In this document: piece after piece, positions 10,523 through 62,745 of the stretch
Layout: each line of letters begins with the position of its first letter
How positions within the stretch are numbered: position 1 is the first letter of the stretch
NCBI GenBank assembly: GCA_900542635.1
Contig: UQOJ01000005.1
Coordinates: 176 to 64,175 of the forward strand
Direction: 5' to 3'
Length of the DNA stretch: 64,000 bases
Source of the DNA: an uncultured Collinsella sp.
GTDB lineage: Bacteria > Actinomycetota > Coriobacteriia > Coriobacteriales > Coriobacteriaceae
Position numbers and translations under genes: made by a program
Notes under the pieces: model-generated
Databases searched by the model: none
What the model saw: the letters and a program-made list of their open reading frames with translations, nothing else
Told to the model about the DNA's origin: nothing

Positions 10523-10647
10523 CCGGGCGGAGGGGCCGGATATAAGGTTTCCTGCTCTACAGTCCTGCGCAAGACGAAGGCCACATTAAGTGGCCTTCTT
10601 TGCGTGCGGAACTCGCGATAAACCTTATATCCGGCCCCTCCGCCCGG
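10523..10647. repeat. type A palindromic element, copy 1 (27-bp perfect arms + ~70-nt conserved core)
   Basis: Arms CCGGGCGGAGGGGCCGGATATAAGGTT / AACCTTATATCCGGCCCCTCCGCCCGG. The core is shared with 15298-15434 and 33219-33354. Starts 18 nt after the stop at 10505. Confidence 0.85.
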
Positions 10648-10765
10648 CTCCCGCGGCTCTCAGGGGCATCTCTCATGCAAAAACTGTCGTGGGGTAAAGT
10701 CCGAGGTCAGTGGCGTTTTATACCGAGAATTTCAAAAAAAGCTGAAAATTCATTACACATTTGCG

Positions 10766-15297: not shown

Positions 15298-15434
15298 GGC
15301 CCCGGGAGAGCGGGGACACCGGCTTAGGTTTCCTGCTCTACAGTCCTGCTCACGACGGAGGCCACATTAAGTGGCCTCCTGTTCGTGCGGAACTCGCGAT
15401 AAACCTAAGCCGGTGTCCCCGCTCTCCCGGGGCC
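15298..15434. repeat. type A palindromic element, copy 2 (33-bp perfect arms)
   Basis: Arms GGCCCCGGGAGAGCGGGGACACCGGCTTAGGTT / AACCTAAGCCGGTGTCCCCGCTCTCCCGGGGCC. Core is ~90% identical to copies 1 and 3. Starts 8 nt after the stop at 15290. Confidence 0.85.
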
Positions 15435-15550: not shown

Positions 15551-15758
15551 CTTGCGGGTTCGAATCCCTCCGCTTGTGGCCCTTGGCTGAAAAGTTGGGA
15601 TGCGGGGAGCCCATGGCTGATGTGGGACGGAGGGATTCCGCGTCCGCCTGCCGGCGGCCGCGTGCCGCTGCGTCGCTTCGCTCCTTGCGTGCTGCGCTGG
15701 AAAACGCTTCGCGTTTCCTCAGCTCCGCACCCTTACGGGTTCGAATCCCTCCGCTTGC
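15551..15758. repeat. tRNA-Gln 3-prime-end-derived repeats around a GC-rich spacer
   Basis: CCTT[G/A]CGGGTTCGAATCCCTCCGCTTG occurs at 15551-15577 and 15732-15758. TGGGACGGAGGGATTC at 15624-15639 equals the first 16 nt of the tRNA-Gln gene as read on the + strand (15814-15829). None of these folds into a cloverleaf. Confidence 0.7.
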
Positions 15759-15769
15759 CCACAAGAAAG

Positions 15770-15798: not shown

Positions 15799-15813
15799 TG
15801 TGTTCTTAAGGGC

Positions 15814-15884
15814 TGGGACGGAGGGATTCGAACCCCCAACAGCCGGCACCAAAAACCGGAGTTCTACCGTTGAACTACGTCCCA
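15814..15884 (-). tRNA. tRNA-Gln (anticodon TTG)
   Basis: Reverse complement TGGGACG-TA-GTTC-AACGGTA-GAAC-T-CCGGT-TTTTGGT-GCCGG-CTGTT-GGGGG-TTCGAAT-CCCTC-CGTCCCA folds as a cloverleaf. CCA is not encoded. Confidence 0.9.
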
Positions 15885-15922
15885 ATGTGTGGTGTTGCCC
15901 AAAAGCAACTCGTTTAGTTTAC

Positions 15923-26245: not shown

Positions 26246-26289
26246 AAGGCTCCCCTCCCGTCCGCTGGGCGAGAGGGGAGCCTTTCTTT
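26246..26289 (+). terminator. intrinsic terminator after the ABC operon
   Basis: AAGGCTCCCCTC-15 nt-GAGGGGAGCCTT followed by TCTTTG. Confidence 0.75.
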
Positions 26290-26316
26290 GTGTTGGGGTT
26301 GTCTGGCCGGTCGTTT

Positions 26317-26454
26317 GTCTCGATCTGTAACGGGTAGGGCCGATTTCGGACGTTAGATGTTACAGATCGAGATAGACCCAAGGGGAGGGGCCGGTATGTC
26401 TCAATCTGTAACAGCTGGGGCCGTTTTTACCGAGTAGCTGTTACAGATCGAGAT
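26317..26454. repeat. type C palindromes, two tandem units
   Basis: GTCTCGATCTGTAAC...GTTACAGATCGAGAT (26317-26377) and GTCTCAATCTGTAACAGC...GCTGTTACAGATCGAGA (26398-26454). Both loops contain GGGGCCG[A/T]TTT. Confidence 0.8.
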
Positions 26455-33218: not shown

Positions 33219-33354
33219 GGGCCGCGTGCCCGCCCGCAATATATTTGATTGCCTGCTCGGGCAGTCCTGCGCAAGACGAAGGCCACATTAAGTGGCCTTC
33301 TTTGCGTGCGGAACTCGCGATCAATCAAATATAATGCGGGCGGGCACGCGGCCC
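33219..33354. repeat. type A palindromic element, copy 3 (32-bp arms, 1 mismatch)
   Basis: Arms GGGCCGCGTGCCCGCCCGCAATATATTTGATT / AATCAAATATAATGCGGGCGGGCACGCGGCCC. A 59-nt core stretch is identical to copy 1. Starts 9 nt after the stop at 33210. Confidence 0.85.
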
Positions 33355-33406: not shown

Positions 33407-33433
33407 GAAGGCCCCTTTCGGGGCCTTCTTTTT
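33407..33433 (+). terminator. intrinsic terminator downstream of type A copy 3
   Basis: GAAGGCCCC-TTTC-GGGGCCTTC followed by TTTTT; abuts the murB stop. Confidence 0.8.
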
Positions 33434-34439
33434 ATAAAAATTCGCCTACTCGGTGGACTTCGGGTTCTAGGTCTACGTCGAACTGCTCTTTGACTTTGGC
33501 TTGGATGTCGCGGATGAGTTCGTCAACGTCGGCGGCGGTGGCGTGGTTGGCGTTGACGATAAAACCGCAGTGCTTTTCGCTTACCTGCGCGCCGCCAACG
33601 GCGTGTCCTCGCAGGCCGGCATCCATGATGAGCTTGCCGGCAAAGTAGCCCTCGGGGCGCTTGAAGGTGGAGCCGGCACTCGGCATGTCGAGCGGCTGCT
33701 TGTCCTCGCGGCGCTGGCGGTAGTCGTCCATGTCGGCCTTGATCATCGCGGCGTTGCCCGGGGCGAGATTGAAGGTGGCCGAAAGCACGATAAAGCCGTC
33801 ATCGGCGATGCGGCTCTTTCGATAACCCAGGTTGAGCTCGTCGACATCGAACTCGATGATATTGCCGCTGCCGCGGGTGCCGTCGTCGAGCCGGCGAGCG
33901 GGTTTGTAGACGCGCACGGACTCCAGCACATCGGCCATGCAGGCACCGTAGGCACCGGCGTTCATGTAGCAGGCGCCGCCGACCGAACCGGGGATGCCCG
34001 AGATAGGCTCCATGCCGGTGAGACAGGCCTCGGCTGCCGCAGCGGAGACATCGGAAAGCAAGGCGCCGGCTGCCGCCGTGACGTGCGTGCCGTCGACCGT
34101 AATGTCGGAGAGTCCCTCGCCCAGCGCCACGATGACGCCGCGGATGCCCTTGTCGCCGACGAGCAGGTCGGAGCCGTTGCCCACGATGGTGAGGGGCAGA
34201 TCGCAGCGATAGCAGGTATCGAGCGTGGCGACGAGGCCCTGCTCGGTATCGGGCGTGACAAAGACGTCGGCCGGGCCGCCGATCTTAAACGTAGTGTGCT
34301 CGCGCATGGGCTCGCTCATCAGTACGTTGTCCTCGCCGGCAACGCCAGCAAGCGCGCACAGCAGGTCCTCGTTAAAAAAGTCGTTCTCGTGCATACGAAT
34401 ATCCGCCTTTTGGTGGTCGTTGTCATCAATCGATTGCAA
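33432..34439 (-). CDS. murB: UDP-N-acetylenolpyruvoylglucosamine reductase
   Basis: HTTFKIGGPADVFVTP, GNGSDLLV, GIPGSVGGA, SGSTFKRP-type motifs. An alternative start is the Met at 34394. Confidence 0.9.
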   Translation of the reverse strand: MQSIDDNDHQKADIRMHENDFFNEDLLCALAGVAGEDNVLMSEPMREHTTFKIGGPADVFVTPDTEQGLVATLDTCYRCDLPLTIVGNGSDLLVGDKGIRGVIVALGEGLSDITVDGTHVTAAAGALLSDVSAAAAEACLTGMEPISGIPGSVGGACYMNAGAYGACMADVLESVRVYKPARRLDDGTRGSGNIIEFDVDELNLGYRKSRIADDGFIVLSATFNLAPGNAAMIKADMDDYRQRREDKQPLDMPSAGSTFKRPEGYFAGKLIMDAGLRGHAVGGAQVSEKHCGFIVNANHATAADVDELIRDIQAKVKEQFDVDLEPEVHRVGEFL

Positions 34440-38366: not shown

Positions 38367-38451
38367 GGGCCTGCTCCGGGCGGGTTGCCTTGCTCCGGGA
38401 AGTGGGCTTCGCGAACTTCCCAGAGCAAGGCAACCCGCCCGGAGCAGGCCC
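38367..38451. repeat. type B long hairpin, copy 1
   Basis: ~36-bp arms (1 mismatch), GGCCTGCTCCGGGCGGGTTGCCTTGCTCCGGGAAGT / ACTTCCCAGAGCAAGGCAACCCGCCCGGAGCAGGCC. Loop GGGCTTCGCGA. Confidence 0.85.
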
Positions 38452-38563: not shown

Positions 38564-38638
38564 GGGCCGGGGAGGCATGCTTTGTTTTGAGAAGTTCGCG
38601 GAGCCCACTTCTCAAAACAAAGCATGCCTCCCCGGCCC
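38564..38638. repeat. type B long hairpin, copy 2 (loop inverted relative to copy 1)
   Basis: 32-bp perfect arms GGGCCGGGGAGGCATGCTTTGTTTTGAGAAGT / ACTTCTCAAAACAAAGCATGCCTCCCCGGCCC. Loop TCGCGGAGCCC is the reverse complement of GGGCTCCGCGA. Confidence 0.85.
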
Positions 38639-41027: not shown

Positions 41028-42089
41028 ATGAAGGAGACCGAGAAGATCGAGATCATGCACTTCGACCAGGAGGGCTACCTCGAGGACGGCAGGAACGTCT
41101 ACGAGGCCGGCAAGAAGATGACCGCCCTGGCCGACCGCGTGCACGAGGAGGGCTACGACGCCGTCTTCCTGATGGGCGTCGGCGGCACCTGGGACGAGTT
41201 CATGCAGCTCGAGTACCTCATGAACAAGTTCGGCGACCGCGACCTCGAGGTCTACCTGATCCACGCCGCCGAGTGGAACGTCATGGGCCACAAGCGCATG
41301 ACCGACAGGTCCGTCGTGCTGACCGCCTCCGAGTCCGGCACCACCCCCGAGGTGCTCGAGGCCGTCGGCAAGATGAGGGAGATGGGCGTGCGCGTCTTCG
41401 CCATGACCAACCCCGAGGGCAAGATCGGGCAGGCCGTGGGCGCCGAGAACTGCGTCATGATGGCCTCCGACCACGGCGCCGGCGGCTGCGAGAAGGGCTA
41501 CTACCTCGCCGACTGCTTCGGCCTGCGCCTGCTCAACCGCCGCGGCTGCTTCCCCAAGTTCGACCTGTTCATCGAGCAGACGAAGGACGTCTGGAAGGAC
41601 ATGCTCGACATCCGCAAGCGCTTCGAGCCGCGCGCCGAGGAGCTCGCCAGGAAGTACGCGCTGGCCGACTACACCATGTTCATCGGCTCGGGCGCGCTGT
41701 GGGGCGAGACCATCCTGTACTCCATGTGCCTGCTCGAGGAGATGCAGTGGAAGCGCATCCGCCACATCACCTCGCACGACTTCTTCCACGGCACGCTCGA
41801 GCTGCTCGAGCCCGGCGTCCCGGTGTTCCTGTTCATGGGAGAGGACGAGTGCCGCGCCCTCGACGAGCGCGTCCGCGCCTTCCTCACCAGCGGCGTGACC
41901 GGCGACGAGGACTACGTCATCATCGACACCGCCGAGTACGCGATCCCGGGCCTGGACGACGACTTCCGCGTCATCGTGTCGCCGTGGATCCTGTCCGTGC
42001 TGACCACCGACCGCCTCGCGCGCAACTACGAGCTGGTCACCAAGCACAACCTCAAGTACCGCCGCTACTACCACCAGTTCGACTACTAA
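41028..42089 (+). CDS. SIS-domain sugar-phosphate isomerase/deglycase (FrlB/GfrE/AgaS-like), copy 1
   Basis: Two SIS-type segments (VFLMGVGGTWDE..., TASESGTTPEV, MFIGSGALWGE). ATG at 41028 follows AAAGGAGCGGGA. Identical to 46178-47239. Confidence 0.8.
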   Translation: MKETEKIEIMHFDQEGYLEDGRNVYEAGKKMTALADRVHEEGYDAVFLMGVGGTWDEFMQLEYLMNKFGDRDLEVYLIHAAEWNVMGHKRMTDRSVVLTASESGTTPEVLEAVGKMREMGVRVFAMTNPEGKIGQAVGAENCVMMASDHGAGGCEKGYYLADCFGLRLLNRRGCFPKFDLFIEQTKDVWKDMLDIRKRFEPRAEELARKYALADYTMFIGSGALWGETILYSMCLLEEMQWKRIRHITSHDFFHGTLELLEPGVPVFLFMGEDECRALDERVRAFLTSGVTGDEDYVIIDTAEYAIPGLDDDFRVIVSPWILSVLTTDRLARNYELVTKHNLKYRRYYHQFDY

Positions 42090-46177: not shown

Positions 46178-47239
46178 ATGAAGGAGACCGAGAAGATCGA
46201 GATCATGCACTTCGACCAGGAGGGCTACCTCGAGGACGGCAGGAACGTCTACGAGGCCGGCAAGAAGATGACCGCCCTGGCCGACCGCGTGCACGAGGAG
46301 GGCTACGACGCCGTCTTCCTGATGGGCGTCGGCGGCACCTGGGACGAGTTCATGCAGCTCGAGTACCTCATGAACAAGTTCGGCGACCGCGACCTCGAGG
46401 TCTACCTGATCCACGCCGCCGAGTGGAACGTCATGGGCCACAAGCGCATGACCGACAGGTCCGTCGTGCTGACCGCCTCCGAGTCCGGCACCACCCCCGA
46501 GGTGCTCGAGGCCGTCGGCAAGATGAGGGAGATGGGCGTGCGCGTCTTCGCCATGACCAACCCCGAGGGCAAGATCGGGCAGGCCGTGGGCGCCGAGAAC
46601 TGCGTCATGATGGCCTCCGACCACGGCGCCGGCGGCTGCGAGAAGGGCTACTACCTCGCCGACTGCTTCGGCCTGCGCCTGCTCAACCGCCGCGGCTGCT
46701 TCCCCAAGTTCGACCTGTTCATCGAGCAGACGAAGGACGTCTGGAAGGACATGCTCGACATCCGCAAGCGCTTCGAGCCGCGCGCCGAGGAGCTCGCCAG
46801 GAAGTACGCGCTGGCCGACTACACCATGTTCATCGGCTCGGGCGCGCTGTGGGGCGAGACCATCCTGTACTCCATGTGCCTGCTCGAGGAGATGCAGTGG
46901 AAGCGCATCCGCCACATCACCTCGCACGACTTCTTCCACGGCACGCTCGAGCTGCTCGAGCCCGGCGTCCCGGTGTTCCTGTTCATGGGAGAGGACGAGT
47001 GCCGCGCCCTCGACGAGCGCGTCCGCGCCTTCCTCACCAGCGGCGTGACCGGCGACGAGGACTACGTCATCATCGACACCGCCGAGTACGCGATCCCGGG
47101 CCTGGACGACGACTTCCGCGTCATCGTGTCGCCGTGGATCCTGTCCGTGCTGACCACCGACCGCCTCGCGCGCAACTACGAGCTGGTCACCAAGCACAAC
47201 CTCAAGTACCGCCGCTACTACCACCAGTTCGACTACTAA
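46178..47239 (+). CDS. SIS-domain sugar-phosphate isomerase/deglycase (FrlB/GfrE/AgaS-like), copy 2
   Basis: Identical to 41028-42089 from ATG to TAA. SD GGGAGG lies upstream. Confidence 0.8.
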   Translation: MKETEKIEIMHFDQEGYLEDGRNVYEAGKKMTALADRVHEEGYDAVFLMGVGGTWDEFMQLEYLMNKFGDRDLEVYLIHAAEWNVMGHKRMTDRSVVLTASESGTTPEVLEAVGKMREMGVRVFAMTNPEGKIGQAVGAENCVMMASDHGAGGCEKGYYLADCFGLRLLNRRGCFPKFDLFIEQTKDVWKDMLDIRKRFEPRAEELARKYALADYTMFIGSGALWGETILYSMCLLEEMQWKRIRHITSHDFFHGTLELLEPGVPVFLFMGEDECRALDERVRAFLTSGVTGDEDYVIIDTAEYAIPGLDDDFRVIVSPWILSVLTTDRLARNYELVTKHNLKYRRYYHQFDY

Positions 47240-51876: not shown

Positions 51877-52464
51877 ATGGGCCGTTATGCCGAGGTGACC
51901 CGCAAGACGGGTGAGACCGACATTGTCGTCAAGCTCGACCTAGACGGATGCGGCGTGTGCGATATCTCGACGGGCGTACCGTTTTTCGACCATATGCTCA
52001 ACGCCTTTGGTCGCCATGGCCTGTTTGATTTGACGGTGCATGCGGTAGGCGACGTTGAGGTCGACGCGCACCACACCGTCGAGGATACGGGCATTGTGCT
52101 GGGCGAGGCGTTTTGCCAAGCGTTGGGCGACAAGGCGGGCATTACACGCTTTGCCGATGCAGCGATTGCCATGGACGAGACACTCGTGATGGCTGCCGTG
52201 GACATTTCGGGTCGCGGCCAGGCCTACTGCGAGCTGCCCGTGCCGACCGAGCGCGTGGGCAGCTTCGATACCGAGCTGGCCGTTGAGTTCTTCTATGCCT
52301 TCGCACGCGATGCCAAGCTCACGCTGCACGTGCGCGAACTGGCGGGCGGCAACTCGCATCACATTATCGAGGCCGCCTTTAAGGCCGTGGGTCGCACGAT
52401 GCGCCACGCCTGCGAGCTCGATCCCCGCGTGCAGGGCATCCCCAGCACCAAGGGCTCACTGTAA
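51877..52464 (+). CDS. hisB: imidazoleglycerol-phosphate dehydratase
   Basis: RKTGETDI, DHMLNAF, HHTVEDTGI, HHIIEAAFKA. Confidence 0.92.
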   Translation: MGRYAEVTRKTGETDIVVKLDLDGCGVCDISTGVPFFDHMLNAFGRHGLFDLTVHAVGDVEVDAHHTVEDTGIVLGEAFCQALGDKAGITRFADAAIAMDETLVMAAVDISGRGQAYCELPVPTERVGSFDTELAVEFFYAFARDAKLTLHVRELAGGNSHHIIEAAFKAVGRTMRHACELDPRVQGIPSTKGSL

Positions 52465-52503
52465 CCTGCCAAAAAGGGACAGGTTTATTTTGGCAGGTTT
52501 TAT
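52465..52503 (+). promoter_or_regulatory. terminator-like hairpin in the hisB-hisH intercistronic gap
   Basis: CCTGCCAAAA-13 nt-TTTTGGCAGG followed by TTTTATC. The loop AGGGACAGGTTT is complementary to AAACCTGTCCC at 52554-52566. Confidence 0.55.
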
Positions 52504-52603
52504 CTGCGGGAATGCTGTCTCATGTGGTGGGTGAACGTTTAACCGACCAAAAGAAACCTGTCCCCTTTGCGGTGGTTTTGGATGATGAGAAGTGGAGGGT
52601 CGC

Positions 52604-55590: not shown

Positions 55591-55659
55591 AAGTTGCGGT
55601 GAAATAGGGACTGTTTAAGCGCTTCATCAGGCAAAACAATCCCTATTCCACCGCAACTT
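55591..55659. repeat. type D palindrome, copy 1
   Basis: AAGTTGCGGTGAAATAGGGA ... TCCCTATTCCACCGCAACTT (one A-C mismatch), between convergent hisE and the PHP phosphatase gene. Confidence 0.8.
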
Positions 55660-62324: not shown

Positions 62325-62401
62325 CTCTGAGTTGCGGTGAAATAGTTCCTAAATAAGCTGGTAAACGGTATAAACAGGATCTATTCCACCGCAACTTAGA
62401 G
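62325..62401. repeat. type D palindrome, copy 2
   Basis: CTCTGAGTTGCGGTGAAATAG ... CTATTCCACCGCAACTTAGAG. It has the same A-C mismatch position as copy 1. Confidence 0.8.
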
Positions 62402-62413
62402 CCCCGCCGGCGC

Positions 62414-62604
62414 GTAAAAGAAACGAGCCCGCATCCCTGGGGGACATGGGCCCGTAAAATCCAAATGGTAGGGGCGGTGGGACGTCTGCGTATTTGCTGC
62501 GCAAATACGCACCGGCTTCGGCCGCCTGTCGGCGCCCTCGCCGGCTCGCTTCGGACGCTGCGCGTCCGCTTAACGCTCGCCCCCTCGCGGGTTCGAGTCC
62601 CACC
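62414..62604. repeat. tRNA-Leu 3-prime-end-derived unit (degenerate copy of terminator + tRNA 3-prime end, GC-rich structured spacer, inverted T-arm copy)
   Basis: 62414-62483 resembles 62600-62678, including an exact TGGTAGGGGCGGTGGGAC. GGGTTCGAGTCCCACCG at 62588-62604 is the tRNA-Leu T-arm in inverted orientation. The spacer contains perfect hairpins GCGTATTTGC-TGC-GCAAATACGC and GGACGC-TGC-GCGTCC. Confidence 0.7.
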
Positions 62605-62618
62605 GGCATCTAAAAGAA

Positions 62619-62660: not shown

Positions 62661-62745
62661 ATGGTAGGGGCGGTGGGACTCGAACCCACAATCCTTGCGG
62701 CGAGAGATTTTAAGTCTCCTGCGTATGCCAATTCCGCCACGCCCC
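62661..62745 (-). tRNA. tRNA-Leu (anticodon TAA), CCA encoded
   Basis: Reverse complement GGGGGCG...GGAGA-CTTAAAA-TCTCT...long variable arm...GTGGG-TTCGAGT-CCCAC-CGCCCCT-ACCA. Confidence 0.9.

Follow-up and report, generated by a model that had tools for sequence, protein, structure and literature searches.

A dispersed intergenic quasi-palindrome of Collinsella with locus-specific complementary arms and a conserved asymmetric centre

The described systems closest to the element treated here are the REP/BIME and REPIN repeats of Proteobacteria, associated with RAYT (Y1/HUH) transposases. These are dispersed intergenic palindromes that lie mostly at the 3' ends of genes and rarely at divergent promoters, are found in either orientation, frequently paired as inverted copies, fold into hairpins as DNA and as RNA and break assemblies. 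The same can be said of a repeat, here called Type A, that is present three times in a 64,000-nucleotide stretch of DNA from an uncultured Collinsella sp. (assembly GCA_900542635.1, contig UQOJ01000005.1, positions 176 to 64,175 of the forward strand); this whole stretch is referred to as the window. REP units, however, are 20-40 nt long, are conserved over the whole stem and carry a GTAG/CGTC tag, whereas in Type A the outer 18-49 bp differ at each locus and it is the centre that is conserved. Assignment to REP/REPIN was rejected because the conserved part of Type A is a 70-nt asymmetric hairpin, because CTAC (the reverse complement of GTAG) is present only in the subtype with the bulge CTCTACAG, and because few arms start with CGTC. 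No RAYT was identified, in that the window genes examined include no transposase, and whole Collinsella genomes were not scanned for RAYT. With moderate confidence, we regard Type A as a dispersed intergenic quasi-palindrome that is specific to the lineage of Collinsella and related Coriobacteriia and is REP/ERIC/BIME-like in kind.

ERIC/IRU and Correia elements resemble Type A in size, in folding as one long imperfect hairpin, in occupying transcribed intergenic sites and in possessing a conserved central inverted repeat. They differ in being conserved from end to end with terminal inverted repeats and, in the case of Correia, a TA duplication, whereas the ends of Type A vary and no target-site duplication accompanies it. 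A miniature inverted-repeat transposable element (MITE) was rejected because the outer arms differ at each locus (identity between loci of 0.55, compared with a background of 0.47) and there is no target-site duplication. As to insertion polymorphism, the only core-less alleles among the 203 loci are of the deletion type (L135 and L138), and a parent insertion sequence was not searched for genome-wide. L-numbers denote the related stretches that were compared, 203 in all, with L203 a stretch of a closed genome. An earlier sequence-only reading of the window had called Type A the reverse of a MITE. This is a fair description of the pattern, but the element is better read as a whole-hairpin repeat with a drifting stem and a constrained centre.

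Integron attC sites, like Type A, lie just past stop codons and are imperfect palindromes (57-141 bp for attC), and attC, which varies in sequence but keeps its structure, is recognized as a folded single strand through extrahelical bases. The layout of Type A is nonetheless the opposite of that of attC, which has conserved outer R''(RYYYAAC) and R'(GTTRRRY) boxes and a variable centre. An attC identity was rejected because the outer ends of Type A are variable and its centre conserved, the flanking genes are housekeeping genes (tsaD, cstA, murB) and not cassettes, and no integrase was seen nearby. Mycobacterial TRITs are conserved terminator repeats. They and other intrinsic terminators share with Type A a GC-rich hairpin past the stop codon, often between convergent genes, but no U-tract follows the Type A element and its stems are 2-4 times longer than those of the ordinary terminators of the window. 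Finally, quasipalindrome correction in bacterial genomes was reportedly described by van Noort and colleagues in Trends in Genetics in 2003. The marks of this process, or short-range template switching, are homogenized arms, multi-base changes that are exact reverse complements (as in L079) and compensated substitutions without wobble, all of which are seen in Type A. It is a mutational process, and it explains the arms of Type A, while both the dispersal and the conservation of the asymmetric core lie outside its reach. The reading developed below, in which we place about as much confidence as doubt, is that drifting arms would be kept complementary by replication-coupled palindrome correction around a constrained, probably protein-recognized asymmetric centre.

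Type A copies in the window and in related genomes

All three copies in the window are on the + strand, at 10523-10647, 15298-15434 and 33219-33354, exactly where the sequence-only reading had placed them. Their parts and immediate neighbours are as follows.

10523..10550, + strand: copy 1 5' arm, 28 nt; the ancestral arm start is 10518 (GGTCC), and a 33-bp version is present in L098 and L203
10551..10619, + strand: copy 1 core, 69 nt, with junction, mid-stem and apical stem GAAGGCCAC-ATTAA-GTGGCCTTC; covariance model score 106.7 bits
10620..10647, + strand: copy 1 3' arm, 28 nt
10648..10667, + strand: remnant CTCCCGCGGCTCTCAGGGGC from the outer right arm of a second Type A element, in inverted orientation and now lost, as seen in the alignment with L048, L098 and L203
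15298..15331, + strand: copy 2 5' arm, 34 nt, perfect
15332..15400, + strand: copy 2 core, 69 nt, with mid-stem haplotype GCTCACGAC/TGTTCG and apical stem GGAGGCCAC/GTGGCCTCC; 107.8 bits
15401..15434, + strand: copy 2 3' arm, 34 nt
33219..33251, + strand: copy 3 5' arm, 33 nt, with one A/T mismatch against the 3' arm that is polymorphic between strains
33252..33321, + strand: copy 3 core, 70 nt, with bulge variant CTCGGGCAG; 104.6 bits
33322..33354, + strand: copy 3 3' arm, 33 nt
33407..33436, + strand: canonical intrinsic terminator, 52 nt 3' of copy 3, separate from the element and kept in element-less alleles

The gaps between the stop codon and the arm measure 18, 8 and 9 nt for copies 1, 2 and 3, as had been reported, and the respective upstream genes encode a GNAT-TsaD fusion, a 726/753-aa protein without a Pfam family and a PcsB-like coiled-coil protein. 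We confirmed that copies 1 and 3 share an identical 59-nt stretch, a match that was obtained in none of 100 shuffles, and that copy 2 differs from it at 6 positions, including a compensated pair in the apical stem. The self-complementarity of the arms extends slightly further than had been noted (28/28, 34/34 and 32/33). Each copy folds as one long hairpin with -93 to -113 kcal/mol and z-scores of -12 to -15, and the two strands are nearly equal in this respect. No further Type A copies were found in the window, either with nhmmer or with covariance model R1 with its filters off. Type A is not itself a canonical terminator. An intrinsic terminator was rejected as its identity because no T-tract follows any of the three window copies and because copy 3 has a terminator of its own downstream, confirmed at 33407-33428, the separate structure that the sequence-only reading had pointed out and the only one so placed within the window. 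Copy 3 is clearly inside a 3' UTR (untranslated region).

The family was searched for with a pattern anchored at both core ends in a collection of species-representative genomes, which yielded at least 120 stretches. The Type A core is present in at least 120 contigs; among the matches listed, almost all are from human-gut Collinsella or Coriobacteriaceae, and the outliers among them are L018, an Eggerthellaceae metagenome-assembled genome (MAG), and L065 (C. provencensis). When 137 full copies were grouped, at least 23 distinct intergenic loci were obtained, with elements of about 125-170 bp. The window is C. aerofaciens-like: it has a G+C content of 60.6% and is syntenic with the closed C. 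aerofaciens TSDC17.2-1.1 replicon NZ_OY725717.1, in which BLAST locates the core at 10 places within 900 kb. Contigs end within the core in several cases among genomes and in many among metagenomes, as would be expected of a multi-copy repeat that breaks assemblies. Orthologous sites are occupied across many species (9-11 at some loci), and at one locus the element is kept in 76 of 78 contigs. A search with protein homologues for more distant orthologous loci returned only relatives that are 97-99% identical.

At gathering thresholds, Rfam 15 (including Collinsella-1, RF01699) reports only rRNA and tRNA in the window. At E<=10, region 10400-10800 matches only MIR8670, with 33.5 bits against a gathering score of 150, a generic long-hairpin match. 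The statement of the sequence-only reading that the element matches no described RNA family therefore holds for Rfam. No description of the Type A repeat was found in a literature search by taxon and core sequence, and no match to the core was found by BLAST in a phage collection. Type A is thus a real repeat family and, as judged from Rfam and the searchable literature, apparently an undescribed one. Separately, a pattern scan of IMG/VR returned two predicted viral contigs with a Type A core (L201, 12805-12861; L202, 29-85).

The conserved centre and the drifting arms

A consensus was derived from an alignment (A3) of 23 diverse copies. In this consensus the whole element is one hairpin, the variable stem of which runs into a conserved junction consisting, in order, of a helix UGC/GCG, a 5-6-nt 5' bulge (UCUAC, UCGGGC or UCGGAC), a helix AGU/ACU, a C-A mismatch and a helix CUGC/GCGG. 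The junction is asymmetric, 5' CUGCUC-bulge-CAGUCCUGC being paired with 3' GUGCGGAACUCGCGA, with two fixed U-G pairs and the C-A mismatch included. Three internally consistent haplotypes are found in the mid-stem, and four or five compensated haplotypes in the 9-bp apical stem, the loop of which is ATTAA (CAC-ATTAA-GUG). Pairing is maintained in 99.6% of the cells of the alignment, both-side changes occur in 141 cells compared with 45 in shuffles, and none of 500 shuffles reaches the observed covariation score. No variation is seen in the U-G pairs (columns 15:80 and 29:71) or in the junction sequences, even in the distant L018 and L065. Sub-modules of the core have been reshuffled among loci and alleles, so that hybrid cores exist (L052, L020). 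The central ~70 nt are sequence-constrained. Because the asymmetric core persists despite a process that perfects palindromes and is kept in distant taxa, it is probably under selection. The cause that we infer is that the centre is probably a recognition surface for a putative host protein, which would bind the folded single strand or a cruciform.

The arms present a different picture. Among 86 unique elements they are 18-49 bp long, with a median of 32, and 49 of the 86 are perfect; only 61 of 2904 arm pairs are mismatched (98% Watson-Crick). All of the copies in isolate genomes have complementary arms, and the search of relatives that the sequence-only reading had proposed shows that the additional core copies do have self-complementary flanks. 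A conserved core with covarying, locus-specific closing helices, as that reading described it, is thus a property of a real repeat family. The exceptions, copies with non-matching arms, are chimeric: each combines arms that are otherwise found at two different loci or alleles. They occur exclusively in MAGs or metagenome assemblies, the isolates being matched, and are therefore read as assembly joins through the repeat. For the same reason, the idea that the core is a recombination site, which the chimeric arms might have suggested, was dropped. A flipped core in L116 was not trusted either, since it is flanked by perfect 49-bp inverted repeats that make its orientation ambiguous in a short-read assembly.

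It had been stated that the arms share no sequence apart from their innermost bases, but comparison of the 23 independent loci shows this to be wrong. The inner octamer adjoining the core is conserved as TAAGGTTT or TAAGTTTG, and a G-rich, GGGCGG-like block lies at a distance of 14-24 nt from the core; 14 of the 23 loci have GGGCG. In the 5' arm there are 332 G and 210 C, and G exceeds C in 19 of the 23 loci. Only the outermost part of the arm is unalignable between loci. The gapped identities are these.

Between loci: arm 0.55; flanks 0.47; core 0.88
Among alleles and orthologues within a locus: arm 0.72; flanks 0.79 and 0.78; core 0.895

Together, the positional motif and these identities indicate that the stem arrived with the element and then drifted at roughly the rate of the neighbouring intergenic DNA, while the centre did not. 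On this sequence evidence the arms are diverged homologues rather than foreign sequence, and the whole hairpin is the ancestral unit.

The nature of the changes in the paired regions has implications for how complementarity is maintained. Variable pairs swap between Watson-Crick states, and there are essentially no one-sided (G-U) states. Mismatches in the arms are G:T or T:G in 25 cases and A:C or C:A in 21. This near equality is as expected of fresh neutral transitions and is unlike what would be seen in wobble-tolerant RNA stems. The imperfect inner stem of L079 (4832-4900) has lost 24 nt on its 5' side (AGTCCTGCGCAAGACGGAAAGCAC), in place of which stands an exact reverse complement of the 3' side (AGTTCCGCACGCAAAGGAAAGCAC). 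Such an overwrite would be a multi-base event typical of template switching and has left what is now a perfect palindrome. In same-length pairs of orthologous alleles at all loci, 258 positions are compensated compared with 119 one-arm changes. PMC8604942 and PMC8794818 describe how template switching between inverted-repeat arms homogenizes the arms, inverts spacers and maintains hairpins. From the pattern of substitutions, arm complementarity in Type A looks DNA-driven rather than RNA-selected.

These same data must be weighed against the possibility of a structured RNA, located in 3' UTRs or intergenic transcripts, with a long P1 helix kept by selection for RNA pairing and a core that binds a protein or directs processing, such as an entry site for RNase III by which the upstream mRNA is released or stabilized. 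The strong covariation, with its nearly complete pairing and a score beyond the reach of all shuffles, is what such an RNA would display, as are the two invariant U-G pairs, at which the consensus fold is better on the + strand. However, the variable pairs lack G-U intermediates, A:C is as common as G:T in the arms, and perfect stems of up to 49 bp far exceed the usual needs of an RNA. The minimum free energy of the consensus is moreover about equal on the two strands (-45.1 and -44.3 kcal/mol), and Rfam offers no match. We consider this explanation unlikely. Of the proposal in the sequence-only reading of a structured RNA with a selected long P1, the covarying helices stand, and selection at the level of RNA is opposed by the lack of G-U states, the frequency of A:C, an orientation not bound to genes and the antisense copies described below.

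Allele histories at two of the window loci are informative. At the copy 1 locus of L203, L048 and L098, two elements come after tsaD: one in + orientation with 33-bp arms and, beyond a spacer of 140 nt, one in - orientation. The window has lost the DNA between CCGCCCG repeats in the right arms of the two elements, and these arms are now fused; 28-bp arms and the remnant at 10648-10667 are left, with the deletion junction at the CCGCCCG microhomology, and copy 1 is thus a derived, truncated form. The copy 3 locus was sampled by a metagenome scan with the upstream protein (80 contigs, protein at least 96% identical). At least 5 arm types, with about nine arm variants, are present at this site, and several variants differ by single substitutions that are mirrored in the partner arm, for instance GACAGTC and GACTGTC. 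The one mismatch of copy 3 (AAT against ATT) is absent from L125, L149 and others, which are perfect, while L121 and L160 have the alternative base on the left arm. This mismatch is thus a polymorphic intermediate between perfect alleles, corrected in other strains.

The comparison with empty sites that the sequence-only reading had suggested was carried out by pairing left and right flanks over all 203 loci. Core-less alleles were found in L135 and L138 only. These read GGTCCGGGACTGGGGGCGAGGC joined directly to GTGACACACC, so that the whole outer left arm of an L165/L190-type allele runs straight into downstream sequence. Missing are the inner arm, the core and the right arm, together with 15 nt (TTCCGGGTCCAAGGC) that are present in every filled allele; the junction falls in an AGGC microhomology, and the GTG variant is otherwise found only in L190. 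The missing TTCCGGGTCCAAGGC, the microhomology and the derived GTGACACACC variant identify L135 and L138 as deletions and not as ancestral empty sites. Neither a plain pre-existing hairpin nor a native flank awaiting duplication was seen in this comparison. A direct repeat of at least 4 nt flanks the element at 2 of 23 loci, compared with 1.96 expected from shuffled pairing, which gives no sign of target-site duplication, and no conserved motif was found in the flanks.

Two further explanations are addressed by these results. According to one, a small mobile core has targeted the loops of long, terminator-like hairpins that were already present, in the manner of IS1397 at REP sequences, so that the arms are host sequence. 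The arms are indeed locus-specific, alleles of one locus agree best in the outermost arm bases, and other hairpin types (B-E, below) have different apices on similar arms. But no orthologous site in the 203 loci is a plain hairpin, target-site duplications are no more frequent than chance, arms of different loci share the inner and G-rich positional motifs, and the same loci are occupied in many species. The ordinary terminators of the window, with stems of 9-24 bp and T-tracts, are also unlike the arms. Insertion into the apex of existing palindromes, which the sequence-only reading had raised, is accordingly very improbable. According to the other, the core is a foldback seed, at which template switching, or synthesis primed by a hairpin, copies the neighbouring flank in inverted form, so that one arm is native and the arms grow outward with time. 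L135 and L138 do keep a left arm alone, joined straight to downstream sequence; loci and orthologues differ in arm length (18-49 bp); and PMC13100816 reports expansion of inverted repeats through template switching. The status of L135 and L138 as deletions removes the first of these points, however, and a mid-arm motif that is common to different loci cannot stem from unrelated flanks. We judge this origin to be quite improbable. Template switching, likewise among the earlier proposals, best accounts for the way arms stay perfect and for the one core that was overwritten, but there is no sign that arms are made from the flank.

We return, then, to drifting arms around a constrained centre. The ancestral unit would be the whole hairpin, stem and centre, long resident at the same orthologous intergenic sites in many species. 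Its outer stem, under little sequence constraint, would drift at about the rate of the neighbouring intergenic DNA. Intrastrand template switching during replication (quasipalindrome correction) would copy a change in one arm onto its partner or erase it, and in doing so would imitate RNA covariation. The constrained centre would resist this perfecting, and gene conversion between copies would reshuffle the few core variants that are allowed. Some of these elements are shared with a more neutral scenario, in which an old burst of a palindromic MITE-like element, now immobile, has left a functionless selfish or neutral repeat, the core of which is kept by gene conversion and the arms by palindrome correction. 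The core identity of paralogues equals that of orthologues, sub-modules have been reshuffled into hybrid cores (L052, L020), and deletion alleles exist, all as this scenario would have it. The asymmetric junction nevertheless does not vary in distant taxa, which are unlikely to exchange sequence with Collinsella copies by conversion; core imperfections persist although correction can erase them; and 76 of 78 contigs at one locus, and 9-11 species at others, still have the element. A repeat devoid of function is for these reasons unlikely.

Orientation and position relative to genes

Genes were called with a codon-usage caller trained on the loci. At about 10 loci the element lies 3-46 nt after the stop codon of a gene that is co-oriented with the core, and the reverse arrangement is found at 1 locus. 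About 7 loci are situated between convergent genes and 1 between divergent genes or promoters. At 4-5 loci (49 of 117 unique-flank copies) a canonical terminator stands downstream on the sense side; on the antisense side there is none. Other copies are antisense and stand immediately before a Shine-Dalgarno (SD) sequence and start codon, or before the UP/-35 region of promoters for tRNA or stable RNA. Convergent (+,-) pairs of neighbouring elements occur at two or three loci. As a separate observation, when the ends are named by core orientation, about 19 of 22 loci have the 5' end closer than the 3' end to the neighbouring gene boundary, irrespective of the strand of that gene.

The preference for sites just past co-oriented stop codons, the sense-only terminators and the presence of copy 3 in a 3' UTR again favour a structured RNA. 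This must be set against the antisense copies before SD sequences and promoters and against an orientation opposite to that of the local genes in 14 of 23 loci. The likeliest role of Type A, in our view, would be that of a hairpin at the ends of transcription units, acting as a 3'-UTR barrier or processing site, or as an insulator that separates adjacent units.

Several considerations weigh against this role and against the DNA-level explanation offered above. The role is one that we infer from position. Antisense copies before start codons or stable-RNA promoters fit a single 3'-UTR role poorly, the core has the same orientation as the local majority gene strand at 9 loci and the opposite one at 14, and it is not tied to GC skew (14 positive, 9 negative). 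From the two invariant U-G pairs one might suspect folding that is specific to one strand, of RNA or of single-stranded DNA (ssDNA). Equal core identity in paralogues and orthologues could come from gene conversion alone, with no function involved. Template switching has been deduced from its signatures, and very strong selection for a perfect duplex could give similar patterns. Lastly, the related sequences are mostly MAGs, and the chimeric-arm copies as well as the flipped core of L116 may be assembly artefacts.

Related hairpins and wider meaning

Other hairpins of the window and of the compared stretches resemble Type A in some respects. Two Type B hairpins, at 38367-38451 and 38564-38638, follow a phosphoketolase gene and have a 21-nt apex GAAGT-GGGCTTCGCGA-ACTTC in opposite orientations; their arms, of 37 bp and 32 bp, are locus-specific and end in GGGCC...GGCCC. 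Orthologues of Type B in L031, L058, L059 and L099 have different arms, which are again complementary. Type C (GTCCTCG...CTGCGGA[AG]T, 63-74 nt) is present in L002, L019, L026, L045, L063, L068, L075, L088 and L107, and it has the words GTCCTGCTC and TGCGGA in common with the Type A junction. Type D was seen in L091 and L104, and Type E in L006, L103 and L111. Types C-E have G-rich, variable, perfect arms and family-specific cores. The existence of Types A-E suggests a broader class of hairpins. A bolder proposal, which we regard as improbable but worth stating, is that they form a modular hairpin superfamily in Coriobacteriia, in which a lineage-specific protein would read the junction (GUCCUGC/GCGGAAC, with the fixed C-A and U-G) on a folded single strand and leave the stem sequence free. 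Such a superfamily might be either an RNase III-type platform for 3'-UTR processing that gives rise to locus-specific duplex RNAs, or a new kind of hairpin element mobilized or recombined by an ssDNA enzyme.

In L061 (7641-7921), two truncated inverted Type A cores, each ending in GCGGAA, flank a 166-nt segment that starts with AGTGTGTCCCGGAA; the GCGGAAAC...GTTTCCGC hairpin motif of this segment is also present in the flanks of L070, L140 and L181. An imperfect palindrome of the CCAAAAAGGGACAGGTTTATTTTGG type occupies 52463-52577 of the window, and its motif directly adjoins Type A in L004, L005, L020, L079 and L090. Another family of hairpin repeats (AAGTTGCGGTGAAATAG...) is represented at 55591-55659 and 62325-62401 and in L012, L029, L073 and L119. 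Dense overlapping inverted repeats built on TCTCGATCTGTAAC, at 26246-26453, have the look of an operator or a binding-site array. Fragments resembling tRNA 3' ends (GGGTTCGAATCCCTCCGCTTG) are found at 15551-15575 and 15736-15762, near tRNA-Gln (15810-15885, - strand), and at 62589-62605 and 62671-62687, near tRNA-Leu. They are on the strand opposite the neighbouring tRNA genes, with perfect inverted matches of 17-21 nt to the T-arm, and may be old integration scars. Two genes at 41028-42089 and 46178-47239, about 5.15 kb apart, encode 353-aa proteins without a Pfam family that are 100% identical, which indicates a recent segmental duplication.

Collinsella is a prevalent and very diverse genus of the human gut, and the repeat has practical consequences for its genomics, in that contigs often stop inside the core and chimeric joins are made through it in MAGs. 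For RNA discovery, Type A provides a natural case in which a process of DNA replication apparently imitates RNA covariation, and a scan based on covariation only would call it a superb structured RNA. Two simple features discriminate: G-U intermediates are missing, and G:T and A:C mismatches are in balance. As a whole, the conservation of an asymmetric junction in the face of a process that erases asymmetry points to a putative nucleic-acid-binding factor and to a role that Type A may play at gene boundaries.

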